A DNA stretch of 31,864 bases, taken from contig CBFFRP010000589.1 of NCBI GenBank assembly GCA_965644295.1, positions 1 through 31,864 on the forward strand, in the 5' to 3' direction. The notes under the pieces were generated by a model. That model saw nothing but the letters and a program-made list of their open reading frames with translations, made no database searches and was not told the origin of the DNA. The position numbers and the translations under genes are program-made. Shown piece by piece: positions 989 through 20,189 of the stretch. This DNA is from Paraphysomonas bandaiensis. Its lineage: Eukaryota > Protista > Chrysophyceae. Positions within the stretch are counted from its first letter, which is position 1. Each line of letters starts with the position of its first letter.

Positions 989-1071
989 TAATATACAAAT
1001 ATATATTATTTTTTAAATAATAAATTTTTTAATTTTTTATTTTTTTAAAAATCTAAAGGTTTTTTATAAAT

Positions 1072-2027
1072 TTAATATTGCAATGTTGCAAAACCGTTTT
1101 CAATCAAAATGACTTGATCAAAATAAGCGTATGTATCTATGCGTGCGGTCACAGTGGGGGCACCTGAGGAAAAACGAGGCATAAAAAATATATCGTCAGT
1201 GCTAGAATTATAACCCTGGTATACTGTTTCCATACCTGAGCTGCTGTAACTTTCTAAATCTAAACCTAAATAAAAGTTGGATGATGCTGCACACCCGTCA
1301 TAATCGGCTGCTGTCTCGGTACTAGCATCTGACGCTTGCATATCATAAGTATTTATATTAATGCTTGGTTCATGATTCAAATCGCTTACGCTTCCAATTG
1401 CTCTGATCAATTCGCCGAAAAATTCAGGAAGGCAACTAGGTGCTTTAGTTGGTACGGTCTTACTACCTAATCTAACACTGTATGACTCTAGACCGAAATG
1501 ATTTGATGACAGAGGGAAATAGGTGACTTCTCCAGCGTGTTTATCGCGCATACTGAAAAATAGAGATCTTAAAGAGTTATATTTAGCGGGTACGGGAACA
1601 CTAAGTTCAACGTTAGCGGCAATATTTCCAGTATGTGAATAATTTCTGTAATCTTGTACAACCCACCTTAAAGGTCCATTTGATGCCAAATTAATTTTAT
1701 TCATTGCGTCATCTGATAACTCCATAAAATTACAAACATATTCAACGTCATTAATAGCTATTGATGTTATGGCTTTATTGCAACAAATGCCCTCTAATGG
1801 ATTATTAACCAGAACTATTTCTAGACGTAAAGGCGCGCCGGTCATTGCAAACAGTGGAATATATTTATCACTGTAGCTTAAAAAATTCATTATTGGTACT
1901 GTATAATATCGTTTAGTTGTACTGCCCCCATTTGCAACTTGTGTGAATTCATTAAGTCTTTCACCAACAATTAAACCCTCGTTTGTGCTTGTTGCGCTGT
2001 TAACAATACTGAAACTTTCCGTTCCTG
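1072..2027 (-). pseudogene. PLV major capsid protein, C-terminal part (interrupted by the Gypsy element)
   Basis: Beta-rich jelly-roll-like sequence (KYIPLFAMTGAPLRLEIVL, YNSLRSLFFSMR, FYLGLDLESY, DTYAYFDQVILIENG). It joins in frame to 10943-11346 once the insertion and one TSD copy are removed. Confidence 0.85.
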
Positions 2028-3387
2028 TGTGACCACGTGGCATTTCACATGCCTCAGTCACGTGTCTATAGTAAGTGCAAAACTACTAACTACGGGATGA
2101 AGACAGAGACGATAGAAGTATCAGAAACATATCATTATTACGCTACAGATTACTGAAGAACTAGCACTAGGACTGGAGGTACAATTTCCCATAATCTGCC
2201 AACAGCTCTTCGCCGGCCGCAACTGCCCGAGTGGTCTGCACCCAGACCACGTCCAAGCCGGACTCATCTACTACAAATTCGCAGTTGAAGCGCCAGCCAG
2301 CAGCATGGTCAGAAGGATACACCGTGTTTATATACCTACCATGATTATGAGGCACCCGGGCCAAATAAGCTTGGGACCCCAGCGGCCAAAGGTAACCTAT
2401 GTCCCGAGTGTCCCGCTCCGCATCTATATAGAAGTCCTTAGCTATCTCAAGTATGTATGCTCCCCAGCTAGGACGGGAGGTATACACTTCACCGCTGTAG
2501 AGGCAGAAACGCAGTCCTGGCTCCAAATCCTGTAAGGAGAATAAACCTTGCTGTTCAGGCTTATCGCCCTGCGGGTTGGCAATGTTTAGGCCAGACCGGA
2601 CTTCCACATAGGGATTCACTGTCCCACACCTCTGGTAGAAGTCCAACACGCACTGGTAGACTTCACCTCTTGCATCATACGATGACGAGTGCAAGTAAGG
2701 AACAACTTTGCACAGTTGCTTATGTGCATCAAGTTGTCCCTCGGGGCATCGAACGGAGCGTTCCCACATACGCCTAGCAGCAGCCCTTTCACGGTAGGCA
2801 CACCGATACCGATTGGACCTACGTAATAGAGAGCCCCGTCCCCTACGATTGCGAGGTTTAGGCTTAGTGGAGCCCGCTGCTGGATCTGTAGTGGCAGACA
2901 TTGTTTATGCAGCAATGGATATGATGTATGTATCTGATGTGGACATTGGTTCTTAGTCTGAGATAGTAGATGTAGGAAAAGCATCATACGGTATGCTGCA
3001 CACTCACATACATGTTGGTCCATTGTAATACAGTAGCAGTACTCTGAATACGCAGTATTCAACGGCTAATTTACAAACTGGCGAGTGTGGTGTGTGGTGT
3101 CATCGCGAGTGTGGTGTGTTGTGCTTGTTCTATGTTGCATTGCTTTACAGCTCAGTGTTTTGTTAAGTGTTGTTCTGTTTGTACACTAGTGTTCTGACTT
3201 CACTGGAGGTGGGGTTTGCGCGGTGATTCTTGGAGGGAGTCACTAGTACAAGCTTGCAACGCTTGACATACTGTTTAGAGTAATAATCATCCTGTTCTCC
3301 TGCAATCAGACGTACATATAGCTCTGGTTAACTCATTGTGTTTGTTTCTGCTGCACAGCCTTGGTTATCAAACCTGGCTGTGTCATA
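2028..3387 (+). repeat. 5' LTR (1360 bp), termini TGTGAC...GTCATA
   Basis: Matches 9884-10942 apart from a 301-bp indel and 6 substitutions (visual alignment). Confidence 0.95.
2167..2901 (-). CDS. SET-domain protein (putative lysine methyltransferase), antisense within the 5' LTR
   Basis: SET motifs in canonical order: QGLFSLQDL, CLYSGEV, YIDA, GRYINT (cf. RFINH), NCEF, TTRAVAAGEELLADYG..Y (cf. GEELxxDY). Basic NLS-like N-terminus KPKPRNRRGRG. Confidence 0.88.
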   Translation of the reverse strand: MSATTDPAAGSTKPKPRNRRGRGSLLRRSNRYRCAYRERAAARRMWERSVRCPEGQLDAHKQLCKVVPYLHSSSYDARGEVYQCVLDFYQRCGTVNPYVEVRSGLNIANPQGDKPEQQGLFSLQDLEPGLRFCLYSGEVYTSRPSWGAYILEIAKDFYIDAERDTRDIGYLWPLGSQAYLARVPHNHGRYINTVYPSDHAAGWRFNCEFVVDESGLDVVWVQTTRAVAAGEELLADYGKLYLQS

Positions 3388-3914
3388 GTAATTAATTACT
3401 GAAAAAAGCAGATCAGCGCTGATAGTAATTGTTACACATACAACTCATTTTGCAATATTTGCAACACTTGTTATTCTTGCACATTAGAATACTGAGCTTG
3501 GCCTTTATTAGCCTCCTCGTATTCGAATAGTCCTTAGAGTCTATAGATTGCATACCAGTGCAAGCTTAGGGATTAAGGAGTGATATCTTGCAGTGTTTGA
3601 GAATACATATCCGTGAGCGCGGACTCCGTTAGACTGCGTCGTTAAGAGTGTACCTTGAACACTGCAACAAACTCAACATTTTGGAAAACTGCTCTTATCG
3701 CATTGACAACTGACCGTCTGCGAAATGAGTGGATACCTCAATTATTGAGTGGGTGAGATAGACCTTGTAAGAGACTTGCAATACAATTTTATCGCATAGA
3801 CAACTGACTGCCTGCGAAATACTTGTACAGCAATATCTACATAGTTTGATCTTGCGATAGCTCCAATAAACCTGAGCCCAAGCTGTCCTGTAATTAATAA
3901 GACCGCAATTCAAA

Positions 3915-5717
3915 ATGTCTACTCCTAGTGGCAAAAGGACCAGCAAGAAGCCGTCCACTGCTCCACGGCGTCCTAAACCAGTGGTACAGGAGGACTCACC
4001 AGATAAAATAGATGAGAGTCAATACGAAGAAGCGCCCATGATGCCTTCACCTTCTGCCCCAGCATCCTCAGCAACCCAACAGATTCTGGACTCAGTACAG
4101 GAGATCCAAGGCACCCTGGGACAAGTAGCCTTTGCGATATCCAACCTAGACAGTAGGGTACAAGCTCTGGAGAGTTCTAAGAGAGCAGATACACCTGATT
4201 CACCAGACACCCAGAGTGATGACACACCTGATTCATTCAGTAGCAAGGGCAGTAAAGCAAGTACCACACCCAGGGGAGTCACTAAGCGTGCTAAGAAAGA
4301 CCGACCAAAACCCCGTTATTCCACTTTAGGAGATCTGGCTACATTCAGGAGATTGCCAGAGAAGAAAGAGCAACTGAGTGAGGAGAGCTCCGACTCAGAG
4401 CTTGAGGAAGAGGCAGAAGAACATTTGGGGCGTCTTGCCAGTGTTTTTGGAGAGAAACGTCCAGGAAAGTTCTTCCGGAATTTGAAACGCAGCGCCAAGG
4501 TGGCCCAAGCTAAGACTGTCAATATAACTAGGCTTGAGAAGAAGTGTCACGTCAGGATTGAGACATTCAAACTTGGTAGAGTTTCAAGGGCGATCAAGGA
4601 GATTCTGGATTTCCAAGAAGAGGAAGAAACAGAAGTCCGCATCCAGAAAGTTTTATCTAGAAACCTGAAGGATCACTTGCGTTCCGTCTATGATATTCAA
4701 CACGCAGAATTAGCTAGCATGGACATATCTGACCTCATGAGAATCGTAGCCCTAGAGACGAAAGTTTTCAGCTGTGTTGGGTTTTACAACGAGCTGAAAG
4801 AATCTCTCAGCCATATGAAGGTCATGGAGTGGGATAATGTCAACGCTGTCAATTTTGAAGCCTTCTATTTTCAACAACTTCGTTTGATAGAATCCTTTAA
4901 AAGGATGTTGTCTATCATGTTGGAAAATGAAAGCAACAGGCGTTGGTGTCCACAGGCTGACGACAAGGAATACGGCCTTATTAGGCTATTTAAAACCCTG
5001 AACGACGTCACATATGTGAAATTTGTTCTAGGTTGTATTCCGAAGAAGAAGTTCGACTTTATGGAAGACTTCTTCAAACTATATACGGAGGTACTGTTAG
5101 ACCATTACCAGATCACGATTGCTTATAAACAGTTGCCCTTCAAAGCAACCGTGCAACATCAGGCGAAGTATGAGGAATACATGAAGCGCAAGCGTGAAAT
5201 GTTTTCTAGACCTAAGTCTGGAGTGGCAAAGAATTCCACTAGCACCCACTCTTCTACCAGGTTATTTAACATGGAAGAGGAACAGGCTTCTTTTTCTTCA
5301 AATGAATTTTCTCATGATGAAGAAGATTTATGGGATGCCTATGGGGATACATGGAAAAGCAACAACCACAGTACCGATGTTCCTACTGGCGGCAAACCTA
5401 ATGGCGAGCCAGCGACCGAAACTTCTGAAGAGAAAGATACATCCGACTCAGAAGGAGCTTTGCAAGCTATGGATGGCCAGAATCCATCTCATAAACCCAA
5501 ACAAGAGAAGTATGGGTGCATGAGAAAAATCATGTATGGCAAGTGCGACAAGAGTGATTGTCGTTATAGCCATAATCCTAGAGCTCTCGCCAATACCGCT
5601 TCGGAATTGGCTGAGAAATCCCAAGCTTATTTGAAGACCACTTCTTCAACTTCGGGGTCTCAGGATAAACCTCCTGCTATTTTAAGGAGAGATCGCTTCG
5701 GCGACTCTCGTCCTTGA
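3915..5717 (+). CDS. gag: Gag-like protein (600 aa) with coiled-coil segment and C-terminal CCCH zinc finger
   Basis: Long ORF between the 5' LTR and pol; C-x8-C-x4-C-x3-H motif CMRKIMYGKCDKSDCRYSH at 5517-5573. Assignment rests mainly on position. Confidence 0.75.
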   Translation: MSTPSGKRTSKKPSTAPRRPKPVVQEDSPDKIDESQYEEAPMMPSPSAPASSATQQILDSVQEIQGTLGQVAFAISNLDSRVQALESSKRADTPDSPDTQSDDTPDSFSSKGSKASTTPRGVTKRAKKDRPKPRYSTLGDLATFRRLPEKKEQLSEESSDSELEEEAEEHLGRLASVFGEKRPGKFFRNLKRSAKVAQAKTVNITRLEKKCHVRIETFKLGRVSRAIKEILDFQEEEETEVRIQKVLSRNLKDHLRSVYDIQHAELASMDISDLMRIVALETKVFSCVGFYNELKESLSHMKVMEWDNVNAVNFEAFYFQQLRLIESFKRMLSIMLENESNRRWCPQADDKEYGLIRLFKTLNDVTYVKFVLGCIPKKKFDFMEDFFKLYTEVLLDHYQITIAYKQLPFKATVQHQAKYEEYMKRKREMFSRPKSGVAKNSTSTHSSTRLFNMEEEQASFSSNEFSHDEEDLWDAYGDTWKSNNHSTDVPTGGKPNGEPATETSEEKDTSDSEGALQAMDGQNPSHKPKQEKYGCMRKIMYGKCDKSDCRYSHNPRALANTASELAEKSQAYLKTTSSTSGSQDKPPAILRRDRFGDSRP

Positions 5718-5732
5718 GATAAGGAGGTTAAC

Positions 5733-8700
5733 ATGATTGAGGACCTAGAAGAACATGTGATCAGTGTTTGTGATGGGAATGATGATTGTGATTATCTCCC
5801 AGAGGCTAAAACATTGAATACTACTTCTTCAAAGGTCCATTTCAAGGATGGAGCTAAGCTGTATGCTTCATATCCTTCAGCCAAGAAATTTTCATCAGCA
5901 CATACTGTAGGTAGAGTAATTATAGACAAGAAGTTCGGAGTGGAAGAATTAGTGAAAGTTTTATGTGACACAGGAGCCCTATCCGCTAACTACGTAGCAC
6001 GTGATCTTGTGGATAGATTGCGTACCAAGCTAGAACCTAGCAGGTTCTACAAGGTCAAACACCGTGTGGTTTTGGCAGACAGTAGAACCGTAAAGGATCT
6101 TGACGAAGGGGTTCGATTGAACTTAGTGTTTACCGATCCCAAGAGTCACACTTACCAGTACACTGGTGAGTTCATCGTGATCGACATGTCATCTAATGAC
6201 ATTATTTTGGGACTACCAGCCCTCACTGGGAAGCTATACCCTTTCATGTGTGCTGTCATGGAGCAGGCCCATGAGAATCATCTCGAAGATTCGGCTCAAG
6301 GGAACCATAATTTGAGTGCCCTACAAAATGAGGACATGGAATCCAGAGAGGAACACCGACGTCCCTGGAGTAAAGCGAATGATGCTATCGCTCCAGAAGA
6401 TAACGAGACTGAGTTACCCGTTCAATTCAAAGATGCTTTGACATTCCTCGGAAAGTCTAGAGAGGAAGCTCTTAACGACTACTATGAACAAATAGAAACT
6501 CACGTCAGTCAGGAGATGAAACAAGAGACCAACATTATGGATCTCTTATCTTCCAAAGCTGAGAAGGTATTCGTGCCTGATGAGTGGACAGGAGTCCGAG
6601 GTGTTGACCCTTTGACTCTTAAGTGGAAAGAAACTTTACCTGAAAGAATGAAACCCAGAGCCAGGCCGATCAACCCTAAGCTCTGGGAAGCATCCGAAAA
6701 GGAGTTCAGGAGACTATGTGGTTATTTTTACCAGAAGAGCAGATCTCCTTGGGCTTCATGCTTGGTGGTTGCTCCCAAGGCTACTCCACCTTATATCCGA
6801 TTCTGCGGGGATTATGTTAACATCAACAAGCACATGCAAGTGGGTAATTATACAATTCCCAATGTCAAGCATGAATTGGACAAGATCATCAATTTCCCAT
6901 TGTATATGGATATCGACTTGACCAACGCTTTCCATCAGATACCTCTAGCGGAAGAAACATCAGAGAGGCTTTCTATCCAGACGCCATGGGGCCAATATGC
7001 GCCAAAGTTCATGCCAGAAGGTATTGCGCCGGCTACTGGAATTCTGCAAGAGGTAGTCAGGGAAATATTTGAAGATTTTTCTGACTGGGCCATTGTAATA
7101 TTTGACAACATGTTGATATTGGCCAACGACCCTCAAGATGCGTATCAGAAATTTGAGAAAGTGATTGACAGATGCATCGAGAGGAATCTCAAACTGAAAA
7201 TGCCAAAGAGTTGGCTTGGATTTAGAAAAGTAGACTTCTTCGGATACGTATGCAGACACAAATCCTATGAAGTCAATCCTGAGAAGAAGGAAGCCCTAGG
7301 CAAAATCCCAATGCCTACCAACACCAAACAAGCGAGGTCTCTGCTTGGCAAGGGCGTGTTCTTTTCCAGTTTTACCCCTAGATATTCAGACTTGGTTGCT
7401 CATCTCACAGATTTGACCAAATCGAAATTCAATTGGGACAAGACTACGTGGCGGCACGATTATGAGGCTGAATATCGTCGCTTCATAAAAGGCCTGCAAG
7501 ATTCCTGCGAATTGTTCTACCCAGACTACAATTTGGAGTGGACACTGCGTACTGACGCTAGTGAGCTAGGAATCGGCTCGGTGCTTCTGCAGAAAAAGAT
7601 TCTCGCAGATGGAACAGAGCAGTTGCAACCCATTGCCTTCCTATCAAAGAAGTTTTCAGCTCAGGCTCAGAAATGGGCTACGATAGAGCAAGAAGCTTAT
7701 GGTATTTACTACAGTGTCAAGCACTTAGCGTACTATTTGATTGGGAAGCAGTTCACTATAGAGACTGACCACAATAATCTCTTGTGGATGGAGTCGTCTG
7801 AAGTACCTAAGATCACAAGATGGAGAATTTTCTTGCAATCTTTCAACTTCAGCATTAAACACATATCGGGTGCCAAGAATTGGTTAGCCGATTGGTTATC
7901 TCGGGAGCATCAAGTTGCGGCGTTGTCCGGTATATTCTTAGATGAAGACTATGCCGATGCCTACTTCCTTGGAGAGGACTGCACTGAGGATGAATTTTTT
8001 AACTTCTTGGGCAATTTTATGAACCCAGAAGACAGGGAAGTATCTCCTCATGCGCAAAGTTCAGTCACTCCCGAGGATGCCTTGCAACAAGTACATAATG
8101 CCCGAGTTGGACATCTCGGTGGGCGAGCCACTTGGATTCGACTTAATAAGCAATTCCCCGGCCATGGAATTCCTTACAAAGTAGTCGAAGACTTCATTGC
8201 GAAGTGTCCAAACTGTGTTAAGACTAGATTGGCGATGAAAGAAGCGCTGATCCCTATAGTCCGAAACCTTAAGCCTCCGAGCGCTCGGAGTGCTATTGGT
8301 ATTGATGCGGTAGAAATCACACCCCATGGTGCTGATGGATACACGCACATTAATGTCGTAGTCAACCTGTTCACCAAGTTAGTTTATCTTGAGCCAGTCA
8401 AAGGAGTGACTGCCCTCAACTTGGCAAACACGGTATGGAAGTATTGGAGTTACTACGGACACACTGATCTTATCATCTCAGATCAGGGTCCTGACCTAAC
8501 TTCCGATCTTTTCAAACAACTGACTGAATATATGGGCGTCCGACACACCTTCAGCATAGCCAACAGGCATGCTAATGGTTGTGAACGCATCATCGGTGAG
8601 GTGGTCCGACATTTGCGTGCCCTAGTATATGAAAACAGCAAGCGTGTAGAACGAAAGGATGTTTTTGAGGATCCCAGCTGGATACCCAGCGCTCAATACA

Positions 8701-9698
8701 TTCTGAATTCAGAAGTCTCATCCGAGACGGGGTACTCACCCTTTGAGCTCACTTTTGGCTCTAATGATCTGGAATATTTAACTATGAATATACAGACTTT
8801 GCCTGAGCGTGCACACGCCAGACTGACTGCTCTTAATGAACAGTTAGAAGGCCTACGGGCGGCTTCCAAAACTTACCAGCAGCAGTTAGCGAGTGAACGT
8901 GCTGGGGAGGGAGTTCACCCGGACAAGCAGAACCGATATCAACCGGGCGACTTCATTTTATTTGACAAAGGCGCCAAGGTTCATCCCAAGATGTCACATC
9001 GATACATGGGACCTTTTGTTGTTAAGACCCAGTACAAAAATGACATTGATTGTCAGCACCTTGCTACAGGGCAAGTGGTACGTGTTTCAGTGACAGACGT
9101 CAAACTGTTTCCAGGTGATAGAGAAACTGCGTACAGCATGGCTCTACGAGACCAGGATCAGCATGTCATTGACAAGATTCTCTACTATCGGGGTGACAGA
9201 GAGTCACGCTCCACTTTGACTTTTACTGTGAGATTTCAGGATGGTGATGTCAGAGAAGTGCCTTATAGCAAGGACCTTTTTGACTCAGTGCCTTACGCGG
9301 ACTTTTGTTCCAGCAAACGGTACCTCTACCACCTGATTTATCCAGCGGAGGGTGCCAAGAAATATATCTCGGACATCCGACGCCAGTCTATCACTCAGTT
9401 CAAACCCGGTGACCATGCATATGTTGACCTACGCATTTATGGCGACGTATGGTACGACGGACTGCAGTTACCAGACTCCCACTTACTGACCTATGTAGCT
9501 CCGATCCAGTTCACACACTGGTATCATCGAAGCTCTAGGAGAGTATTATCCGTCAAGGATCTTCTCACTCTCCGCACTTACCGTTATGACAACTACCTCG
9601 TGCATTGTTTCGTTCACCCTGAACTAGACACTAGCACTATGGTACTCGTCGACAAGGACTTGGCTACACGCTACCCTCAAGTCCTTGAGTCCGCTTAG
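5733..9698 (+). CDS. pol: Pol polyprotein: aspartic protease, reverse transcriptase, RNase H, integrase, chromodomain-like module
   Basis: PR LCDTGA. RT RFCGDY, DIDLTNAFHQI, MPEGI, IFDN. RH TDAS, EQEAYGI, TDHNNL, ADWLSR. IN H-x6-H...CPNC, IGID, ISDQG, CERII, GPF. Then HVIDKILYYRG...FTVRFQDG. Confidence 0.96.
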   Translation: MIEDLEEHVISVCDGNDDCDYLPEAKTLNTTSSKVHFKDGAKLYASYPSAKKFSSAHTVGRVIIDKKFGVEELVKVLCDTGALSANYVARDLVDRLRTKLEPSRFYKVKHRVVLADSRTVKDLDEGVRLNLVFTDPKSHTYQYTGEFIVIDMSSNDIILGLPALTGKLYPFMCAVMEQAHENHLEDSAQGNHNLSALQNEDMESREEHRRPWSKANDAIAPEDNETELPVQFKDALTFLGKSREEALNDYYEQIETHVSQEMKQETNIMDLLSSKAEKVFVPDEWTGVRGVDPLTLKWKETLPERMKPRARPINPKLWEASEKEFRRLCGYFYQKSRSPWASCLVVAPKATPPYIRFCGDYVNINKHMQVGNYTIPNVKHELDKIINFPLYMDIDLTNAFHQIPLAEETSERLSIQTPWGQYAPKFMPEGIAPATGILQEVVREIFEDFSDWAIVIFDNMLILANDPQDAYQKFEKVIDRCIERNLKLKMPKSWLGFRKVDFFGYVCRHKSYEVNPEKKEALGKIPMPTNTKQARSLLGKGVFFSSFTPRYSDLVAHLTDLTKSKFNWDKTTWRHDYEAEYRRFIKGLQDSCELFYPDYNLEWTLRTDASELGIGSVLLQKKILADGTEQLQPIAFLSKKFSAQAQKWATIEQEAYGIYYSVKHLAYYLIGKQFTIETDHNNLLWMESSEVPKITRWRIFLQSFNFSIKHISGAKNWLADWLSREHQVAALSGIFLDEDYADAYFLGEDCTEDEFFNFLGNFMNPEDREVSPHAQSSVTPEDALQQVHNARVGHLGGRATWIRLNKQFPGHGIPYKVVEDFIAKCPNCVKTRLAMKEALIPIVRNLKPPSARSAIGIDAVEITPHGADGYTHINVVVNLFTKLVYLEPVKGVTALNLANTVWKYWSYYGHTDLIISDQGPDLTSDLFKQLTEYMGVRHTFSIANRHANGCERIIGEVVRHLRALVYENSKRVERKDVFEDPSWIPSAQYILNSEVSSETGYSPFELTFGSNDLEYLTMNIQTLPERAHARLTALNEQLEGLRAASKTYQQQLASERAGEGVHPDKQNRYQPGDFILFDKGAKVHPKMSHRYMGPFVVKTQYKNDIDCQHLATGQVVRVSVTDVKLFPGDRETAYSMALRDQDQHVIDKILYYRGDRESRSTLTFTVRFQDGDVREVPYSKDLFDSVPYADFCSSKRYLYHLIYPAEGAKKYISDIRRQSITQFKPGDHAYVDLRIYGDVWYDGLQLPDSHLLTYVAPIQFTHWYHRSSRRVLSVKDLLTLRTYRYDNYLVHCFVHPELDTSTMVLVDKDLATRYPQVLESA

Positions 9699-9855
9699 AG
9701 CACGGGACCAATCAACTTACACGTGACCTTCCAACTCCAACGCTCCTCTGCTGCACCTTCGTTTTGATGGCTAATTTTTAGTTCCGTTGAAATTTGTGGG
9801 CCGCAGAGTGACGCCCGTCTTCATCATTTCGCATAATACTTATATCAAACAAACA

Positions 9856-9880
9856 AAAAAAAAAAAAAAGGGAGGCGGGG
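9856..9880 (+). other. Polypurine tract (plus-strand primer)
   Basis: A-run followed by GGGAGGCGGGG, 3 nt upstream of the 3' LTR start. Confidence 0.85.
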
Positions 9881-9883
9881 CAA

Positions 9884-10942
9884 TGTGACCACGTGGCATT
9901 TCACATGCCTCAGTCACGTGTCTATAGTAAGTGCAAAACTACTAACTACGGGATGAAGACAGAGACGATAGAAGTATCAGAAACATATCATTATTACGCT
10001 ACAGATTACTGAAGAACTAGCACTAGGACTGGAGGTACAATTTCCCATAATCTGCCAACAGCTCTTCGCCGGCCGCAACTGCCCGAGTGGTCTGCACCCA
10101 GACCACGTCCAAGCCGGACTCATCTACTACAAATTCGCAGTTGAAGCGCCAGCCAGCAGCATGGTCAGAAGGATACACCGTGTTTATATACCTACCATGA
10201 TTATGAGGCACCCGGGCCAAATAAGCTTGGGACCCCAGCGGCCAAAGGTAACCCATGTCCCGAGTGTCCCGCTCCGCATCTATATAGAAGTCCTTAGCCA
10301 TCTCAAGTATATATGCTCCCCAGCTGGGACGGGAGGTATACACTTCACCGCTGTAGAGGCAGAAACGCAGTCCTAGCTCCAAATCCTGTAAGGAGAATAA
10401 ACCTTGCTGTTCAGGCTTATCGCCCTGAGGGTTGGTGGATCTGTAGTGGCAGACATTGTTTATGCAGCAATGGATATGATGTATGTATCTGATGTGGACA
10501 TTGGTTCTTAGTCTGAGATAGTAGATGTAGGAAAAGCATCATACGGTATGCTGCACACTCACATACATGTTGGTCCATTGTAATACAGTAGCAGTACTCT
10601 GAATACGCAGTATTCAACGGCTAATTTACAAACTGGCGAGTGTGGTGTGTGGTGTCATCGCGAGTGTGGTGTGTTGTGCTTGTTCTATGTTGCATTGCTT
10701 TACAGCTCAGTGTTTTGTTAAGTGTTGTTCTGTTTGTACACTAGTGTTCTGACTTCACTGGAGGTGGGGTTTGCGCGGTGATTCTTGGAGGGAGTCACTA
10801 GTACAAGCTTGCAACGCTTGACATACTGTTTAGAGTAATAATCATCCTGTTCTCCTGCAATCAGACGTACATATAGCTCTGGTTAACTCATTGTGTTTGT
10901 TTCTGCTGCACAGCCTTGGTTATCAAACCTGGCTGTGTCATA
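9884..10942 (+). repeat. 3' LTR (1059 bp; lacks 301 bp present in the 5' LTR)
   Basis: Direct repeat of 2028-3387; junction GGTTGG|TGGATC at 10435/10436. Confidence 0.95.
10023..10456 (-). pseudogene. Internally deleted, frameshifted copy of the SET ORF in the 3' LTR
   Basis: Same C-terminal SET sequence as 2167-2901. The 301-bp deletion (not a multiple of 3) disconnects it from the original ATG. Confidence 0.82.
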
Positions 10943-11346
10943 CCTGATAAAATTGTGTGTTTGTTAATAAAAGAGTCGTTGGACTGTTGCAAAGCCATTA
11001 ACTGACCAACTAGATTATTATAATTCTGAATATCTGAAAGTAAAGTAGAGCCATGAAATACTCGCACTCTAGAAATTAGGGAATGAATACCGGCCTTATC
11101 CAGTCTTACGAATTCTGCTGTGGTCGCGGGGTTAGATGTTTCTGTGTTTACTATTAAGCTTAATTTTAAAAGTGAATCAGCGCCCGACATTACGAGATTA
11201 CGACCGGTAGGAACATTAATAATTATGGTCTCTCCTGCACCATATGGCCCCAAACCATTTTGTGGAGCTATATTATTCTGATAATTACGCGCATAACTTG
11301 AATTTATATTATTTGTATACAATACGTTTTTTGGTAATCCTGACAT
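10943..11346 (-). pseudogene. PLV major capsid protein, N-terminal part (135 aa)
   Basis: MSGLPKNVLY...IAPQNGLGPYGAGETIIINVP...IHSLISRVRVFHGSTLLSDIQNYN is typical of PLV MCP N-termini. The last 17 aa of the listed ORF are read-through into the LTR. Confidence 0.85.
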
Positions 11347-11394: not shown

Positions 11395-11835
11395 TTATAT
11401 AAATGTGCTATCATCTTGTGTTAACTTAGCTAAAGCTTTTCTTGTGTTGTGTTTTTCTAATTTATTACCTGCGTTATGAGCCTTTTTAAATGCTTTTTTA
11501 CTGTGTTTATCGGCTTTATTATGGAGCTTATGTAGCTTATGTACGCCTTTATGTCCTTCGTGTAATCCTGCTTCCAATAGTCTAGATGCTGATCCAACAA
11601 CGGGCATTGTATTTAATCCTGCTTCATTAATAGCGTGTATAGTTTTATCGCCAACGCCTAATATTTTATCTGCTGTGTTAATTGCTTTTGCTGATTTATC
11701 AAGACCTTTATTTACTCCATGTTGGACCTTGTCTAATACGTCGTGTGTTTTTTGTCCTAGTTTATGTATTCTGTGATCGGCCTTGCGACCTAGTTTGTGA
11801 AATTTACGATTTAGCTTTTTGCCTAGTTTTGACAT
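11395..11835 (-). CDS. Basic His/Lys-rich protein, putative virion core or membrane-active protein
   Basis: 146 aa, very K/H-rich with KLG/HKL repeats and a short hydrophobic centre; lies between the penton and MCP genes. Function is inferred. Confidence 0.6.
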   Translation of the reverse strand: MSKLGKKLNRKFHKLGRKADHRIHKLGQKTHDVLDKVQHGVNKGLDKSAKAINTADKILGVGDKTIHAINEAGLNTMPVVGSASRLLEAGLHEGHKGVHKLHKLHNKADKHSKKAFKKAHNAGNKLEKHNTRKALAKLTQDDSTFI

Positions 11836-11865
11836 GTATATATACTATATTGAGAGAAATATTTT

Positions 11866-12603
11866 TTATTCAATAGTTAATAATAAATTTAAAGACCAAT
11901 GTAAACCGTTTAATTCCAATACATCTGCGTCTTGGTCTAATAATTGGACATGTAAAGTATTTATATTATGTATATCATGTACTAAGCTCTTAATATTATT
12001 AATATTTTTATAATTAATAATAGATCCTGCGTTAACATCAACAGGTACAGAGGTAATAATAGAGGCTTTATTAGGTGTAGCACTATTTATATTATTTAGA
12101 ACGAAATTAGACGATGCTATTAAAACGTTTCTTACTGTAAATAAATTTATACCAATTGTTGATAATAATATTAATGAATCTGAATAATAGGTTATATTAT
12201 CTTCAAATCCTAATAATTCAAAACAGGTTGAAGTGTTTGAAAAAGAAAAATCATAAGTACTATGGGTAAATTGTAATTTATTAGTTGATGAGTTATAAGT
12301 TATTGTAAATCCTGGTTCTAAATTGGACTGTAAAAAACTTATTAATGTTCTAATATTATAATTGGCTTTTGTAATTGTAAGTGAATATGGAACACTATTT
12401 AATGTATAATTCAGTGTGTTATTGGTTGAATTAACATTATAAAAAGAGTATGGTATAGAGGCGTCAATTACTGATATATAGGCTTTATGACGTCGTTTAA
12501 CATCTATCTTTGGCAATATAAAAATACAATCAGTAGTTTTATTATTTAGGTATTGATTAGCTGTCTTGCTGTTTAGAACAATCTGTATTTTCTCCATTAA
12601 CAT
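11866..12603 (-). CDS. Minor capsid (penton-like, single jelly-roll) protein
   Basis: ASIPYSFYNVNSTNNTL, ITKANYN, ITYNSSTNKLQF, ELLGF, QLLDQDADVLELNGLHWSLNL: motifs typical of PLV/virophage minor capsid proteins. Confidence 0.85.
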   Translation of the reverse strand: MLMEKIQIVLNSKTANQYLNNKTTDCIFILPKIDVKRRHKAYISVIDASIPYSFYNVNSTNNTLNYTLNSVPYSLTITKANYNIRTLISFLQSNLEPGFTITYNSSTNKLQFTHSTYDFSFSNTSTCFELLGFEDNITYYSDSLILLSTIGINLFTVRNVLIASSNFVLNNINSATPNKASIITSVPVDVNAGSIINYKNINNIKSLVHDIHNINTLHVQLLDQDADVLELNGLHWSLNLLLTIE

Positions 12604-12772
12604 TATCAGATATTTTTATTTCTGCAAAATCATAGGTTAACATGTCTGTATCTATATTGTTATTTCTGTTTAATTTTGGTGTGTCTAAGTTAATCACTCT
12701 GTCTAAGTCTATAATATTTTTCTTTGAAAATTCATAATTATCATAGTTTATTTCCCATTCTAGGCCGTCCAT
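12557..12772 (-). CDS. Small hypothetical viral protein
   Basis: ATG at 12772 is preceded by the TATATA-type motif seen before neighbouring genes; overlaps the penton start. Confidence 0.5.
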   Translation of the reverse strand: MDGLEWEINYDNYEFSKKNIIDLDRVINLDTPKLNRNNNIDTDMLTYDFAEIKISDNVNGENTDCSKQQDS

Positions 12773-12812
12773 ATATAAGTATATCACATAATATATTTAT
12801 ATATTTTACATC

Positions 12813-12855
12813 TAAGGGATAATTTCCCCGAAAATTTAGGGATTTTTATCCCTTA
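12813..12855 (-). terminator. Stem-loop at the stop codon of the 12853-13137 ORF
   Basis: TAAGGGATAA...TTATCCCTTA perfect 10-bp arms with an inner TCCC/GGGA stem. Confidence 0.45.
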
Positions 12856-13137
12856 TTTCCATCCTACAGAATCACTGCGATATTCACCGTGTAGAAAATC
12901 ATATTTTCTTAATAATTCAGTCCTTTTATCTTCGTCTTTATTTTCATATATGATTAATTGCCGTTCATTTAATAGCTCTACTTGTAACTCTTTCTTTTGT
13001 TTTTGAAGTTCTGATAATGTAATTTTCATGTCTTCTATTTCTCTGTCTAAATTTCTTATCTCTTCCTGAATTTTAGGCATATGTGTTTTTCTAATGCAGT
13101 ACACTTCTCCTTTCAACTTTAATAAATACTCACTCAT
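12853..13137 (-). CDS. Hypothetical coiled-coil viral protein (94 aa)
   Basis: ORF with heptad-like E/K/L pattern and the conserved upstream motif. Confidence 0.7.
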   Translation of the reverse strand: MSEYLLKLKGEVYCIRKTHMPKIQEEIRNLDREIEDMKITLSELQKQKKELQVELLNERQLIIYENKDEDKRTELLRKYDFLHGEYRSDSVGWK

Positions 13138-13192
13138 TATAATATATGACTATATATTTTTTTAAAATTATTTTATATTTTTACATATGTAA
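13135..13192 (-). promoter_or_regulatory. Conserved AT-rich viral promoter/leader
   Basis: Near copy of 14008-14060; minus strand reads TTACATAT...AATATAAAATAAT...AAAAAAATATATAGT...TATTATAATG. Confidence 0.55.
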
Positions 13193-13212
13193 TAATTGAA
13201 ATAAATTATAAT

Positions 13213-13539
13213 TTAACAGTCCTCGTCACTGTCTGTGTCATCATCAATATAAACATTTCTAGTACTTATAGGGAGACGAACCCTATAACGGTCATACCTC
13301 TTGCTGCGGTGCAATTCTAATAGCTGCCCCTTAGTTAACAAAGACATTTTTTTATCTTGTATTTTATTGCGGAGATTAACTAATTCTTCGTTTATGTTAT
13401 TCTGTTTTTCTATTAAAATGTTCAATTTTATTACGTCTTGATCTATTTCGTCCTGTACGTTTGTTTTATGAGAACGTTTAATGCTATAAAATCTATCATC
13501 TATATCCATTGAGTAAAATTTACTTTCGGCCTTTGACAT
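13213..13539 (-). CDS. Hypothetical coiled-coil viral protein (108 aa)
   Basis: ORF preceded by TTATATTATAATG; acidic tail. Confidence 0.7.
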   Translation of the reverse strand: MSKAESKFYSMDIDDRFYSIKRSHKTNVQDEIDQDVIKLNILIEKQNNINEELVNLRNKIQDKKMSLLTKGQLLELHRSKRYDRYRVRLPISTRNVYIDDDTDSDEDC

Positions 13540-13578
13540 TATAATATAACATTACAAAAAAATAATTCTATAATGTTT

Positions 13579-14010
13579 TTAATGCGTTAGTTTATCAATA
13601 GTATTCATTGAATATGCCCACTTATCCGTTTTCATTTTCTTTTTATCGCCGTCATTTTCAATAATATAAACAACTGATTCCCAAAACTTATTTTTAAGAT
13701 AAAATTCATCTAGAACATCATCACCTTCGTTTTCTCTTAAACCTAAATTAATAACAGCTCTTTCACGCCAATCATAATATTCAGGTAAATTGTCTGCTGG
13801 TCTATAAGTAAGAAGACCGCTATTTATAACACTCTCATCAAACCGTCTGTTTAATATATCATTGACTTCATCAGCTGGCCTATTTAACTTATGTTTTAGA
13901 CAGTCAAATGGATCATTATGAATGTACTTTTTATGTTTGTAGTAGTATTTACCATTATGCTTGGAATCAACATTTTCGCAACAACTGAAATATTTTAATT
14001 CTTTTGACAT
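13579..14010 (-). CDS. Hypothetical viral protein (143 aa)
   Basis: ORF with the conserved upstream motif; no family recognised. Confidence 0.7.
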   Translation of the reverse strand: MSKELKYFSCCENVDSKHNGKYYYKHKKYIHNDPFDCLKHKLNRPADEVNDILNRRFDESVINSGLLTYRPADNLPEYYDWRERAVINLGLRENEGDDVLDEFYLKNKFWESVVYIIENDGDKKKMKTDKWAYSMNTIDKLTH

Positions 14011-14060
14011 TATAATATAACTATATATTTTTTTATTATTTTATATTCTTATATATGTAA
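14008..14060 (-). promoter_or_regulatory. Conserved AT-rich viral promoter/leader
   Basis: Near copy of 13135-13192. Confidence 0.55.
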
Positions 14061-14638
14061 AACAGGGAGTAAAATACGGCATGTCTATATATAGTGTTAA
14101 ACAGGTCTGTTGTTCCGTCTATCTGTTGTAATTGTTCGGTGTTTAAGTCAGGGTTGGTTGATTGTTTGGTTGATAGGGTCGGTTGATCGCTGGGGTTAAT
14201 ATGTATAGTATTATTTTATTTTGATTGCATTTTTTTTGACATTTTTTTTGAAAATATTTATTTTGGAATTTATTTTTTTAGAAAAAAGTTTTTTTTAAAG
14301 AAAAATGTTGTAAAAAATGTAGTGTATACTGTTACAGAATTTGTGAAAATAAGATTTTTTTTGCATTTTTTATTGTGAAAGGTGACACGACATTTTTTAT
14401 GCAAAAAAGTGTATAAAAAAATGTAATGTACAATATTGGGATTACTTGCACGTGATACACAGCGATACCATAGGGGTAAGGGTTGGTGTATATTAATAGT
14501 TTGCATGGTCACGGTTAACACTGTACAGGGGGTGAAATCCCCCTCTCCTCTCTCTTTTTTTCAATATAATTGTATTGTAGTTATAATTTGTATCTGACAT
14601 TATATAATATTTACTTATATAATAATTTTTATAAATAG

Positions 14639-15102
14639 TTATTCTAAACTATTTAAGATTTCATTTAACTGTTCATCATCTATTCTACCTAGCTTATTTA
14701 GTCTTTTCAATATGTCTATTCCTTCTTTTAATACTTCATTGCTGTTGTTTCCTGCTCTTATATACTCCCTTGCAATAGTTCAAATCGCTTTAATAAATCT
14801 TCTTCCGTTAGTTCTGGCTCTTTGTATTTCAATTCTGTCTTTGCTCCTGATTGTATCATTATGATGTTAAATAACTTCTTCTCTTCTTCTGTTAGTCGTT
14901 TTATCATTTCATAGTTTAGTTCATTTGTGTCTATTAAGTTTAACAACAACACACTCGCAAACTCTGGGCTTATTGTTCGTGTCTTTATATATCTGCTGAA
15001 TGGTGACCCTGTCTCATATAATACCATTAGCTTATTGTCTAATAACTTCATTACATTTATTTGTAGTTTGTAAAACTTCTTATAGTTCTTTTTAATTGTC
15101 AT
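14639..15102 (-). pseudogene. Viral hypothetical protein with a 2-nt (TA) frameshift near 14760
   Basis: The ORF stops at ...LLQGSI*. Removing one TA from AGTATATAAGA gives ...RFELLQGSIRAGNNSNEVLKEGIDILKRLNKLGRIDDEQLNEILNSLE* (153 aa). Confidence 0.65.
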
Positions 15103-15151
15103 TATTATATAATATACTATTATATTATATTATATTTTATACTATTGAATA

Positions 15152-16552
15152 TTAACCAAATCTAACTCTCATGCTTCCAACCTTTCTGATCTTTAATCCT
15201 TTACCATCTTTTATAATGTCTTCTTGTGGTTCTTCTTTTACTTCATCTTCATCGTCATCTTTTCTTTTCATTTCGTCTTCTTCTCTTCTTATATCGTGTA
15301 TAGTTCGTGTAATTGATTTTCTCGGTTCTCTTGGTTGTTTTGCTTCTGCAATATTTCCTTCTTGTTCTGCTATTCTTTCTCTTAATATTCTATCTATTGT
15401 TCTGATTCCTGAGTCTTTGATAAATTTATATAAACTTTTCTTTTGTATTCCTGTTGCTTTTCCGCCTTTTGGTGTAAAGAGTGGTGCAACTTCATTATAA
15501 GATTTCAAGTCATCTTTATTAACTCGTGTTGAACTATCTTTATATTCGTCTCCTCCTTGATTCAATATTCTAATCAATCTTACCACATTAGCTGACATTG
15601 CCTTCATTTCTTCTAATGTCATGGAATTTACTTTATTTATAGCTCGTTGTGTCTTTTCATCATATACTTCTTTTACTTCTTTTATCTCTTTCTCTTCTTT
15701 CTCTTCTTCATCATCATCTTCTATTTGTTCGTCAAAGCTAAAGTCATAATCATCATTTTCAATATGAAAATCTTCATCTTGATTTGTTATTGATGATATT
15801 GAATCATCGTGATAATCAGAAACTGGGTAATTTTGAAATTGTCTTGTGAAACTTTCTAATGATTTTTTGTCTATCTTTTGTATTTCTGGAACAATTGTGT
15901 CTTCATCAACTTCTTCATCAAAATCAGGTAAATCTGACATTTCATAAGCTTGTTTCACTTTGCTTTCTCCATACTTCTTAATCAATGATTCTAAAGTTAG
16001 TTGCAATGCTTCAAGTCTATCATTTAAATCATTTTTAGTTTCGTTTGATATACCTGCTATATTAGTTAAATGTCGTATTATTGCATCAACTTCTTGTTCT
16101 GATGATAAAAGATTTCTTATTCCTGATGTGTTCTTTTGATTTTCAAGATATCTATATACAAAGTCATACATTTCTTGCGCTCTCACTTTACCTACCTTAT
16201 TAGATAAAGAAGAAAACATACCTAAAAAATATTTGTTAAAGTCAACAAAGTTTTTATATCTACTATTTTTTAATTTATTCAAAAAGTCTTGTGCCTCGTT
16301 ACCGTCATTTTTAAACAACTTCAAAGCGTTCTTTTGTGCTGTCTGTGATTGTAATACTTTATCTTCTTCTTTTTCTGCTAGTGTTCTATTATCTCTTACT
16401 TCTGGTGTAATACCTTGTTTTAAGTGTTGTTGCTCTTCTGATATATTCTTGCTAATGTCTGATAATATTTTTAAGTCGTTTAGTTCCTTTTGTCTAAAAT
16501 ATTTTGCTTTTTCCTCTGGACTTAATCTTCTTATTTCAAAACTTGATAACAT
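15152..16552 (-). CDS. Large acidic/charged hypothetical viral protein (~466 aa)
   Basis: Long AT-rich ORF. ATG at 16552 follows TATTATATATAAAAAT; the upstream ATG at 16600 lies inside the neighbouring Copia-like sequence. Confidence 0.75.
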   Translation of the reverse strand: MLSSFEIRRLSPEEKAKYFRQKELNDLKILSDISKNISEEQQHLKQGITPEVRDNRTLAEKEEDKVLQSQTAQKNALKLFKNDGNEAQDFLNKLKNSRYKNFVDFNKYFLGMFSSLSNKVGKVRAQEMYDFVYRYLENQKNTSGIRNLLSSEQEVDAIIRHLTNIAGISNETKNDLNDRLEALQLTLESLIKKYGESKVKQAYEMSDLPDFDEEVDEDTIVPEIQKIDKKSLESFTRQFQNYPVSDYHDDSISSITNQDEDFHIENDDYDFSFDEQIEDDDEEEKEEKEIKEVKEVYDEKTQRAINKVNSMTLEEMKAMSANVVRLIRILNQGGDEYKDSSTRVNKDDLKSYNEVAPLFTPKGGKATGIQKKSLYKFIKDSGIRTIDRILRERIAEQEGNIAEAKQPREPRKSITRTIHDIRREEDEMKRKDDDEDEVKEEPQEDIIKDGKGLKIRKVGSMRVRFG

Positions 16553-16567
16553 ATTTTTATATATAAT

Positions 16568-16795
16568 AGTCGGAGTATGAGCTCCGTCGCTCCTCTTCAT
16601 TCCATATCGTACTGTGTACTTATGTACTTATGTACTTGTACATAGGTACGATGCTGTCAGGTACACATACGATGGTGTCACTTCACGTACGATGGTTGAA
16701 GTTTTGTCTAGGTTGTTCTTTTCATATCTCACATAATTATAATACATATAATTAAGTTCGATTGCTTTCTCTTGCCTTCACATCATCTGCTTACT
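16568..16795 (+). repeat. Putative 5' LTR of the Copia element (~228 bp, AGT...ACT)
   Basis: Lies between the abrupt composition change at ~16568 and the PBS. No partner LTR in the window, so the boundaries are inferred. Confidence 0.45.
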
Positions 16796-16805
16796 TGGTA
16801 GCGGA
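16796..16805 (+). other. Primer-binding site, initiator tRNA-Met type
   Basis: TGGTAGCGGA (cf. yeast Ty1 PBS TGGTAGCGCC), ~30 nt upstream of the gag ATG at 16834. Confidence 0.6.
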
Positions 16806-16833
16806 TTCTTCACGTTCTACTTGTCTTTCACCG

Positions 16834-18545
16834 ATGCCTCTTCCACCTGCTAGTACTGCAATTCATGAGTTATCTGTCGCTGACTGTGACAGACTCTCTA
16901 CATACCTCGAGAATCTCTCCTTGATGGTCCAGAATTGGACGGTTCCCCAATACCCCGCTTCTATCAGTGACTTCCCTCACTTTGAACATCGTTTTAAGGA
17001 GTACCTTCGTCAGGCCAAGCTTCTTGATATTCTTACCCAGTCTTCTGTCAGGGTACCAGCGGCCCCAGATGACGCTTCAGAGGAGACCAAACTATTGATC
17101 ACTTGGCGACAAGCAATGTACGACGAAAAGAACAGTCTCGTCTACGCTTCTCTTCAGAAAGCCTTCATGGACAACGCTTCGGGTATTGCTCATATCGGAG
17201 ATGTCCAACCTGGGGATGGTTACACTGCTTGGCGTAATCTCATTGCTCATGTGGATCGTGCGAAGTCTTCTGGTGAGCATGCTGCAGACAGGAAAGCCTT
17301 CTACCATGATGCTCAGCGCTCCGATGAGGACATTGCAACCTTTGCTACACGACTCCGTACGACAGCCTTCAAGCAAGGTCTTGGTGAGGCTGATATGATT
17401 CATCAGCTATATTCTGGTTTTCGTGATCCGACAAGGGATCAGCGCGTCAAGAGTATCGTACAAGCACTGAAGGATGGCTTATCTTTTGATGCTCTCCTGG
17501 CTAAAATTGAGAGGATTCTAGCCGACCAGCCTTCCGTTGCCTTGGTTGATCCTAAAGTGCCACGGAAGAGTTACTGCAAATACTGTCATAAACATGTTGT
17601 TCATAAGCCGTCTGACTGTTATCGTAACCCTTCTAATCAGGATTCCTCTGCTGCCTCGAAACGTCAGAAATATCATCATGGTCCTCATTGCATTCTTTGT
17701 GGAAATCGTGGTCATTTTGCTCCACAATGTGCTCTCAAAGTTGCCGGTCAGCAGATTCCTCAAAATCCAGATGGTCGTCATGCCCAACCACAGCGCGCAG
17801 CCGGACATCAAGCCCCACCTCTTCCCAATAACCAAGGAGCTTTCAGGTCACCCCGTCGAGGTCCAGGTCGTCCTCCCAAACGTGGTGGTCGTAGTGGTCG
17901 TGGTCGTGGTGCAGGCCGTGGTGATACACGCTCGCGTCATGTTGCATTCGTCGATGACCCAGATACAATTCATACTTATGATCCAGAGTTTGATGGCTAT
18001 ACTCCAGATGATTCTATTTCCTCTACTATGCTTGCTAATGATTCTGATATTGATGCACATTACACTGCCATGATTACTTCTAATTCGTATGATGCTTATT
18101 ACACAGTATATGACATGTCATTCTCTACAACACCTGATACTACTCCTACACAACCTGATTTCATTGAAGTACATTTGGATAGTGCATGTTTTGATCATCT
18201 CACCAATTGCAAACATGTTTTGTCCTCATATACTCCCAATACAGATCATTATCTATATGTTGCAGATAAGCATCGACTCAGGGCTACTGGTGCTGGGAAC
18301 ATGTCCTTCTTCGGCAACGTCTCCTATTATCCAGAGCTCGGTAAAACTCTGTTGTCAGAAGGCCTTATGTTGGAGCAGGGTTGGCGTTTCAACTATTTGG
18401 ACAACGGCGACAAACTTGCCCTTTATACTCGTGATACAACTGTTCCTAATATTTTATTTAAATATAGGTATCGTTATTGGATAGCGCACTTACCGCTAAA
18501 TGTATCACCTGTGTCCTTTTCTGTGTCCAAAGATTCTGTGGCTAA
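16834..18545 (+). pseudogene. Copia Gag-protease (5' part of the interrupted polyprotein)
   Basis: GDGYTAWRNL Gag motif; knuckles CKYCHKHVVHKPSDC and CILCGNRGHFAPQC; RG-rich tract; protease VHLDSACFDHLT...ATGAGNM...YYPELGKTLLS. Confidence 0.85.
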
Positions 18546-18809
18546 AAGCAAACTTTTTTCAAACTTGGGAAAAATTTCTAAATTTGGGACTTTTTAAAAA
18601 TTTCATCATGAAAACCTCATGTTTATTGTTGATATAATTTAGACAGAGGTAATGAAGAATATTAATGTTGTATAATGATGACGATTCCAAGAAACCTTGT
18701 TTTTACATTTGGTCTTAACCACACTCATTAACCACAGTCAGTAACCACACTTATAAGAAGTAATATATATATTTACGTCCAAATCAATTAAATTTATTGT
18801 ATTACTCTA

Positions 18810-19145
18810 CTAAATAGTACTATCAGAGAGTGTGCTTGCATACACATACAAATCGTTTGCTAGAGTTTGACAATAACCAAAGTACTCAAAATCTTCGGAA
18901 TCGACATTCATTATATGACGATATGCGTTGACAGTGTTTTCTATTATACAACCAAACATAAACAAATAAATTATGCTCTCCCGCCTCACCCAAACGCCCA
19001 TTGCCACCATCCCTGTGTGGTCATACCCTCTGTTTGATTTGCTTGTTGTATTTGTCATAGGCATAAAACAGCTTGTAATATAGTCATCACGCACAGGAAT
19101 ACATATATGATGTCGAGGCCTTGGTTGTCCGCCTCGTATACGCAT
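18810..19145 (-). pseudogene. Possible C-terminal remnant of a DDE transposase
   Basis: W...IIYLFMFGCIIENTVNAYRH...YCQTLANDL resembles the C-terminal helices of piggyBac-like transposases; no catalytic core present. Confidence 0.3.
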
Positions 19146-19312
19146 TACTTAATACTGTATGTTGCTTCCCATCTTTCCTATGAGCGTGCACAACTATTTG
19201 CTTCTTTCTTTTGTTCTATACCCATTCCATTTTCCCCACATATCTACTCCGTGCTGCACCAATCGTGTCAACAACGCAGGAATTGCTTCGGATTAATAAT
19301 CCCTCTACGAAT

Positions 19313-19966
19313 ATGGCCCAAAATGGAGGAATTGCTTGGGTAATGGTAGAAAAAGAGACTGGTTTTGATAAGGTAGTATAATATATATTATTATGTTGTT
19401 TCAAAGTTACATTTTAAATGTTACTTACTAGCTATGGTTTATAGGCTCAGTGTCAATACCAATGGAAGAAGATGTCAAAAGACGATGAAGGTAAGAAGAA
19501 CTGCGTGCCTTTCAAAGAGAAGCAGCCTATTGTTGAAGATTTGGTGTCCGATGTAGTAGAGGAGGAGTGGAAAGTGGGAAGGGAGAATGTTCGCAATGTT
19601 CGCAGTGAGATACTGGATCAGCAGGAGAAGACGATTTTATCGTTGACGGAAATGGTGAGGCATCAACAGGAACAAATTGATGCCCTCATTGCCAAAGAAC
19701 GAGTTCGCCCTGCCGATACTTCTAAGCCGAACTGCTCGCGAAAGAGGAGCGTTCATGATGATGAAGATTCAATAACTTCCGAAGCCGACGAGGAGGACTA
19801 GAGAAGTAAGAAGAATAAATCAAGACGACGAAAGAGGAGAACGAAGGGATTGAAGAAATTTGTTGATGAAGGTACTCTTGTTATGCTTGCTCAACAAAAT
19901 TCAGTAATTGATGATAACTGCAAAATGAAAAAAGAAATTAACCGTTTGCGTTTCTTGCAATCATAA
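19313..19966 (+). pseudogene. Spliced Myb/SANT-like plus coiled-coil gene with an internal TAG
   Basis: A GT..AG intron at 19373-19444 joins MAQNGGIAWVMVEKETGFDK to AQCQYQWKKMSKDD... in frame. The frame continues past TAG (19799-19801) as RSKKNKSRRRKRR...INRLRFLQS*. Confidence 0.5.
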
Positions 19967-20189
19967 GTTTAATGAGTATTGTCTATTGTATTTTGCATGC
20001 AACAATAACAATAAAGTAATAAACTGGTTAAGAACCTAAAAACAGCTTGATAATATTACCTTACTTTTATCAACATCCAAGCTATTGTATATCCTTTTTT
20101 CATCTTAAAATATGTATAGTCAACTAGAAATCATTAATGAAAATATTTGGGAAAAATTTTTTCCCAAGTTTGAAAATAGTTTGCTTTAA

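Follow-up and report, generated by a model that had tools for sequence, protein, structure and literature searches.

A SET-domain gene in the long terminal repeat of a Ty3/Gypsy retrotransposon that splits the major capsid gene of a probable polinton-like virus in Paraphysomonas bandaiensis

A stretch of Paraphysomonas bandaiensis DNA of 31,864 nucleotides (assembly GCA_965644295.1, contig CBFFRP010000589.1), here called the window, contains a viral major capsid protein (MCP) gene of the double-jelly-roll type that is cut at codon 135 by an 8,915-bp Ty3/Gypsy long terminal repeat (LTR) retrotransposon (2028-10942). We consider it probable that the element arrived by a recent, ordinary integrase-mediated insertion with a 4-bp target duplication and no targeting of the virus, and that it struck one copy of a polinton-like virus (PLV), likely present in several copies and integrated in a marine protist, leaving that copy without a full capsid protein. 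The capsid break is a tidy further example of a published phenomenon. The more unusual part is a gene for a SET-domain protein in the LTR, which was absent from the finding of the earlier note on this DNA; because of this gene, the retrotransposon is likely a novel variety.

The split capsid gene and its empty site

Read on the minus strand, the 5' part of the MCP gene (codons 1-134 and part of codon 135) occupies 11346-10943 (404 nt) and the 3' part (residues 136-451 and the stop codon) occupies 2023-1072 (952 nt). Together they make 1356 nt or 452 codons, and neither half, each read separately, has an internal stop. Both parts were placed by their match to P0001, a natural intact protein of 451 amino acids that is the best match of the C-terminal half among the 121 proteins returned. 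The N-terminal half agrees with P0001 residues 1-134 at 133 of 134 positions and the C-terminal half with residues 136-451 at 312 of 316 (445 of 450 for the two together), and codon 135 is the only codon cut. This residue is glycine in 90 of 93 aligned MCP sequences, the alignment holding those 93 of the 120 listed homologues that are not shorter than 400 amino acids. A second natural intact allele, P0121, also has 451 residues and differs from P0001 at 6 of them. The earlier note had given the same coordinates and an uninterrupted, reconstructable MCP; both are borne out, with the halves collinear with a natural protein. At the breakpoints, the 5' frame continues 18 codons into the right LTR to give a 152-residue open reading frame (ORF; 10888-11346), and an in-frame ATG at 2043, in the LTR end, opens a 323-residue ORF (1072-2043).

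The element is flanked by the tetranucleotide CCTG, at 2024-2027 on its left and at 10943-10946, directly outside the right LTR, both on the plus strand. By itself a 4-bp match is weak evidence (chance about 1 in 256). We therefore rely on a comparison of window positions 1100-2950, which span the left junction, with assembled contigs from four sequencing runs (X1, X3, X5 and X7), of which 32 of 5,280 pieces and 40 of 72 variant rows were listed. One contig of X5 joins 1869-2027 directly to the sequence after 10946 (159 + 68 letters), and one of X7 does the same (159 + 34 letters), each with one CCTG. Since both contigs run through the unoccupied site and show CCTG only once, the target-site duplication claimed in the earlier note is real, and the empty-site allele that it proposed to search for is found. 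Ten letters of the sequence after 10946 follow position 2027 in X3, too short for a bridge, and the rows listed for X1 contain no empty-site row, 98 rows lying outside them.

These runs also bear on how many copies of the virus and of the element exist. Among the 40 listed variant positions (of 72), 32 lie in the MCP part. Summed depth in X1 is about 21,000-72,000 for the LTR and 1,000-3,900 for the MCP, and in X7 too the LTR lies far above the MCP, depth being no copy number. Variants and depths would fit a virus present in several copies and an LTR present in many more. Some pieces of X3 and of X5 start exactly at 2028, as is expected of an LTR with many different flanks, and at least one part of the viral block is present in 20 of the 24 listed runs, including four organisms and marine metagenomes. 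The list for the block named no RNA data set, which says nothing about its expression. The statement that the capsid was knocked out holds for this one copy and fails in general, as the runs carry intact alleles and many MCP variants. As intact alleles persist, the loss of the capsid gene concerns one copy of a PLV that is likely multi-copy. The interrupted copy would have no working capsid gene in cis; only capsid supplied by intact sister copies could package it, and such packaging in trans would carry a size cost of 8.9 kb. The pair of filled and empty alleles is a marker with which packaging of capsid-dead PLV copies in this way could be followed.

To characterize the fold we used the structure model of P0001 (predicted local distance difference test, pLDDT, 91; predicted template-modelling score, pTM, 0.89). 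Foldseek matched this model to the iridovirus MCP (E = 2.6e-18, template-modelling score 0.60) and also to PBCV-1 Vp54, in agreement with a search of a viral structure library, and placed Sputnik 39th (E = 2.4e-14). The model thus gives a double jelly roll for the natural intact protein, to which each half is 99% identical, and residue 135 falls within the first jelly roll. The Pfam family Capsid_N (PF16903) was matched in all five homologues scanned at about residues 30-215 (four at E ≤ 1.7e-5, one weakly), and it was not matched in P0001 or in either half. The C-terminal half gave no PDB sequence match at E ≤ 1, and used alone as a query against viral contigs it found no relative.

MCP relatives with 33-40% identity were found at 15 viral loci on 14 contigs. 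In a scan of 30 ORFs from five of the loci, a Pox_A32 ATPase was present in L002, L006 and L015, an rve integrase in L015, and a helicase of the type seen in the window in L002 and L005; this gene set is a polinton-like architecture. The ORF at 11866-12603 (minus strand) is likely the minor capsid (penton) gene; 14 of the 15 related loci carry a homologue of it immediately upstream of the MCP, and Pfam gives only DUF5901 for it. No match to a protease, such as the maturation protease of the virophages mavirus and Sputnik, was found among 17 ORFs of the window. PLV core genes and stramenopile hosts have been described (PMC7805220; published sources are cited here and below for the parts of them that were available), and three capsid motifs that might have placed the virus in a PLV group such as Gossevirus or GKS2 gave no match in one supplement of that paper. 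As a separate observation, L006 and L007 share a 32-kb contig on which the ATPase-penton-MCP block occurs in two inverted copies, like a PLV hairpin or inverted dimer.

The retrotransposon and the SET-domain gene in its LTR

Self-comparison gives two long direct repeats on the plus strand, a left (5') LTR of 1360 bp with ends TG...TA (2028-3387) and a right (3') LTR of 1059 bp (9884-10942). Between them lie a gag-like ORF of 600 amino acids (3915-5717), named by its position and with only a weak CCCH zinc-finger match, and a pol ORF of 1321 amino acids (5733-9698), in the same frame behind one TGA. Pfam places the reverse transcriptase at Pol residues 377-505, RNase H at 573-704, H2C2 at 782-831 and rve at 857-944; a protease-like DTG motif can be seen near residue 80. 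A purine-rich stretch before the right LTR (9855-9883) is the likely polypurine tract. With the order protease, reverse transcriptase, RNase H and integrase, two direct LTRs and a 4-bp target duplication, this is a Ty3/Gypsy element. A Ngaro/DIRS identity, which would call for a tyrosine recombinase and split direct repeats, does not fit the rve integrase and the plain LTRs. Chromoviruses have a chromodomain at the C-terminus of the integrase; in the final 265 residues of Pol, Pfam matched none at E ≤ 0.1.

Some smaller features of the element may be recorded here. The LTR ends TGTGAC...GTCATA (2028-2033, 3382-3387 and 10937-10942) form an inverted pair matching at five of six positions, with TA for the usual CA. 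One TGA and five sense codons separate gag from pol in the same frame (5715-5735), so that read-through is possible. Within this 15-nt spacer, a 9-mer that matches a bacterial Shine-Dalgarno sequence perfectly ends 4 nt ahead of the pol ATG, which may be chance.

The family to which the element belongs appears to be young. Its Pol is 99.6-99.85% identical to those of six full-length family members and 99.6-99.7% identical to two MMETSP transcript proteins; these transcript and cluster matches point to a transcribed, young family in a cultured marine microbial eukaryote. In the nearest relatives Pol is a separate ORF of about 1300 amino acids, and in more distant ones it reaches 1700-2100. The recent insertion proposed in the earlier note gains support from the identity of Pol within the family and from that of the LTRs, which are 99.4% identical apart from a 301-bp deletion. 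The deletion removes from the right LTR the equivalent of left-LTR positions 2580-2880, and the 6 substitutions all fall inside 175 of 1059 bp beside it (P = 5e-4 for random sites). Three of the right-LTR alleles are the majority alleles in the runs, and the deletion is also present in X7. Because the LTR differences cluster and recur as family variants, we infer that they reflect exchange with other copies of the family, by recombination or gene conversion, and not age. On the same grounds we rejected a dating by LTR divergence (0.57%).

An ORF of 244 amino acids lies antisense and wholly within the left LTR (2167-2901, minus strand) and matches the SET domain of Pfam (PF00856, E = 1.2e-4). 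In the right LTR its frame is broken by the 301-bp deletion, which leaves a 92-residue remnant (10023-10301). Five relatives with 43-96% identity were found, one of them a complete ORF in an MMETSP transcript; the closest cluster has 76 members, and a profile search returned 99 representatives at E ≤ 1e-10. We aligned 63 sequences, namely the window protein, the five relatives and 57 of 150 listed representatives chosen for long coverage. The model built from this alignment (pLDDT 93) matched MLL1 and SET7/9 in Foldseek at E of about 2e-7 (range 2e-7 to 4e-6 for MLL1, SET7/9 and SETD8), and the profile matched EHMT2 at E = 1e-9. The LTR ORF is thus predicted to take the SET fold.

SET lysine methyltransferases carry the motifs GxG, YxG, RxxNH and ELxxDY. 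Most of the corresponding residues are kept in the alignment (Y135 in 61 of 63 sequences, G137 in 59, R189 in 58, N192 in 61, E232 in 62 and Y237 in 60). Two observations count against an active enzyme carried by retrotransposons. The histidine of the NH motif is replaced by threonine or serine in 59 of the 63 family members, and because the family lacks this histidine, catalysis is uncertain; in the window protein the first glycine of GxG is also glutamine. None of the four metagenome loci with SET relatives of about 30% identity holds gag or pol, three of these loci being shorter than 2.4 kb. The eight read variants considered in the SET frame, five of which change a residue, do not show purifying selection within the family; purifying selection on the SET protein is claimed only because it is conserved between distant relatives. 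Used as a query against genome contigs, the SET alignment found no relative. The longest contigs for the SET and Pol proteins are equal in size (7909 and 7868), which is only a hint of shared contigs elsewhere. In one of the four metagenome loci (L016, 4006-10693) a Helitron-like region with DUF6570, Helitron_like_N and PIF1 is followed directly by a SET relative of 237 amino acids with 31% identity.

SET genes are known as cargo of protist transposons. They have been described in an oomycete proto-Helentron (PMC4067079) and, in a paper citing others, in oomycete HarbingerS and MuDR elements (PMC12730594). These carriers are DNA transposons, whereas here the gene lies antisense in a retrotransposon LTR and its protein family lacks the NH-motif histidine. 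According to PMC12730594, comparable TET/JBP cargo was seen in no retrotransposon. In the literature searched, no title or opening of an abstract describes a retrotransposon LTR with a SET gene, although subscription journals, Repbase or supplements may hold one. With chromatin-modifying cargo described for DNA transposons, the SET gene matters more than the capsid break.

As LTR cargo, the SET gene would be transcribed antisense and copied at every transposition. For SET-carrying DNA transposons an anti-silencing role has been proposed too, and by analogy with this model it is conceivable, at somewhat less than even weight, that the LTR-encoded protein is a lysine methyltransferase, or a mimic that only binds, and helps the element to escape host silencing. 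More doubtful is a Ty3/Gypsy lineage with an LTR-encoded, active, chromatin-writing SET enzyme that overrides host silencing and whose transposon-borne family has been exchanged among the Helitrons and LTR elements of marine protists. If this were true, an anti-silencing enzyme built into the LTR might also override the silencing of an endogenous virus at the landing site. With an element that is young and high-copy and a SET protein that is small and single-domain, anti-silencing by retrotransposons of protists can be tested directly.

Precedents and alternative explanations

Retroelements nested in endogenous viruses of protists have been described several times. One PLV of the chrysophyte Hydrurus foetidus harbours a Ty3/Gypsy element, and Ty3/Gypsy elements often lie near virus insertions (PMC10120064). 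This case shares with ours an LTR element of the same kind within a polinton-like endogenous virus of a protist; the available text states no cut gene, whereas here the MCP is cut and both the duplication and the empty allele are shown. GC-rich elements of 4-9.5 kb with reverse transcriptase and direct repeats occur in coding genes of cryptophyte and ochrophyte PLVs, where inactivation is expected and supply in trans discussed, and a Copia element is described in a Guillardia theta PLV (PMC12220804). These retroelements likewise lie inside viral coding genes, but the genes named in the accessible portion are integrase and tail-fibre genes and no LTR cargo is mentioned, in contrast to the MCP and the SET cargo found here. 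Mutator-like element (MULE) and long interspersed nuclear element (LINE) insertions are reported in PLVs and virophages (10.64898/2026.07.28.741278). The earlier note had drawn a parallel to Ngaro retrotransposons, which are found in about a quarter of the endogenous mavirus-like elements (EMALEs) of Cafeteria burkhardae, with 7 of 20 sites in genes and none in the MCP (PMC8547959). The parallel stands insofar as both are retroelements lying within endogenous DNA viruses of marine protists, but the Hydrurus and PMC12220804 cases are closer: Ngaro elements, with their tyrosine recombinase and split repeats, show a preference for EMALEs and for intergenic DNA, whereas our element has an rve integrase, LTRs and a 4-bp duplication.

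The Ngaro example suggests a different account of the insertion, in which the family targets or prefers endogenous viruses, as types 1 and 2a do in Cafeteria, for shelter or as a shuttle, so that the MCP would be one outcome among others. There is precedent in that EMALEs hold 91% of the type 1 Ngaros (PMC8547959), and a second, Copia-like element stands beside the same viral block. However, the LTR depth many times that of the MCP in X1 and X7 is hard to fit with targeting if depth tracks copies, none of 19 related viral loci (on 16 contigs, all distant relatives) carries this gag, pol or SET gene, and Pol as a query against viral contigs found no relative. A hit in the MCP would also be self-defeating for a shuttle. 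We regard targeting as improbable and favour ordinary integrase action, in which four target bases would be duplicated at a site not chosen for its viral origin.

Several observations weigh against an insertion into an integrated PLV copy, and some of them suggest a fault in the assembly. No contig spanning the virus/LTR junction at 2027/2028 is among the 32 listed pieces (of 5,280), and the filled allele is seen in the present assembly alone. An artefact, in which the assembly wrongly joined a collapsed high-copy LTR family to the MCP or paired LTRs of different copies, would agree with the unbridged filled junction and with an LTR pair that differs by variants common in the family. However, the two flanks belong to one gene, the four duplicated bases are single in the empty allele, and a mis-join is not expected to make a target-site duplication, which leaves an artefact rather less probable still than targeting. 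Both LTRs end in TG...TA and not in the canonical TG...CA, ends that are typical, though not universal, of Ty3/Gypsy elements. On the viral side, the window contains neither a host gene nor a viral end, and because of this we infer the integration of the virus from its transposon surroundings. The earlier note's otherwise intact virus is not supported: the window starts inside the helicase and the viral part runs off there, and no A32 packaging ATPase (best E = 0.62 with a profile of the relatives' ORFs at the ATPase position), viral integrase or long terminal inverted repeat was found in the window, while the Copia-like element adjoins the viral block.

That the split MCP still functions, with the element spliced out or the 152- and 323-residue pieces assembling a capsid, is the least credible account, since the lesion-free halves that might suggest it are explained by youth alone, the in-frame ATG sits in sequence common to both LTRs, and, because the first jelly roll is itself interrupted (by the model and by the extent of Capsid_N in homologues), neither piece should fold into a capsomer.

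The viral block and its surroundings

PLV genomes measure 14-40 kb and carry terminal inverted repeats and an integrase of their own. The viral DNA in the window comes to about 7.6 kb, in two parts with GC contents of 0.33 and 0.29, against 0.46 in the retrotransposon. Besides the MCP and the penton-like gene it includes, on the minus strand, an ORF of a viral SF3/D5-like helicase (DUF5906; 2-988), identified by Pfam and the related loci and cut by the window start, and the remaining AT-rich block (11395-16600, GC 0.29) with ORFs of unknown function. A tblastn search with 274 ORFs of the related loci matched only the helicase, the MCP and the penton-like gene. Inside the block, about 600 AT-rich bp (14040-14640) hold no ATG-started ORF of at least 80 amino acids; this could be a viral terminus or the junction of two viral pieces.

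The Copia-like element (16600-21000) begins at about 16,600, directly upstream of the last viral ORF. It contains a gag with zinc knuckles, a Pol_BBD protease match (16834-18597) and a weak GAG-pre-integrase match near 20760-20905. An insert of 1.65 kb, whose 36-bp inverted ends lie at 18542-18577 and 20155-20190, interrupts it. No tRNA was found and Rfam gave no match, including in the tandem array that ends this element and cuts off its remainder. The array is of higher order, about 10 kb long (21347-31864), with units of 1655 and 2001 bp that each contain two to three inner 346-bp repeats. The units are 98-100% identical, and each carries a 134-residue ORF with no Pfam match.

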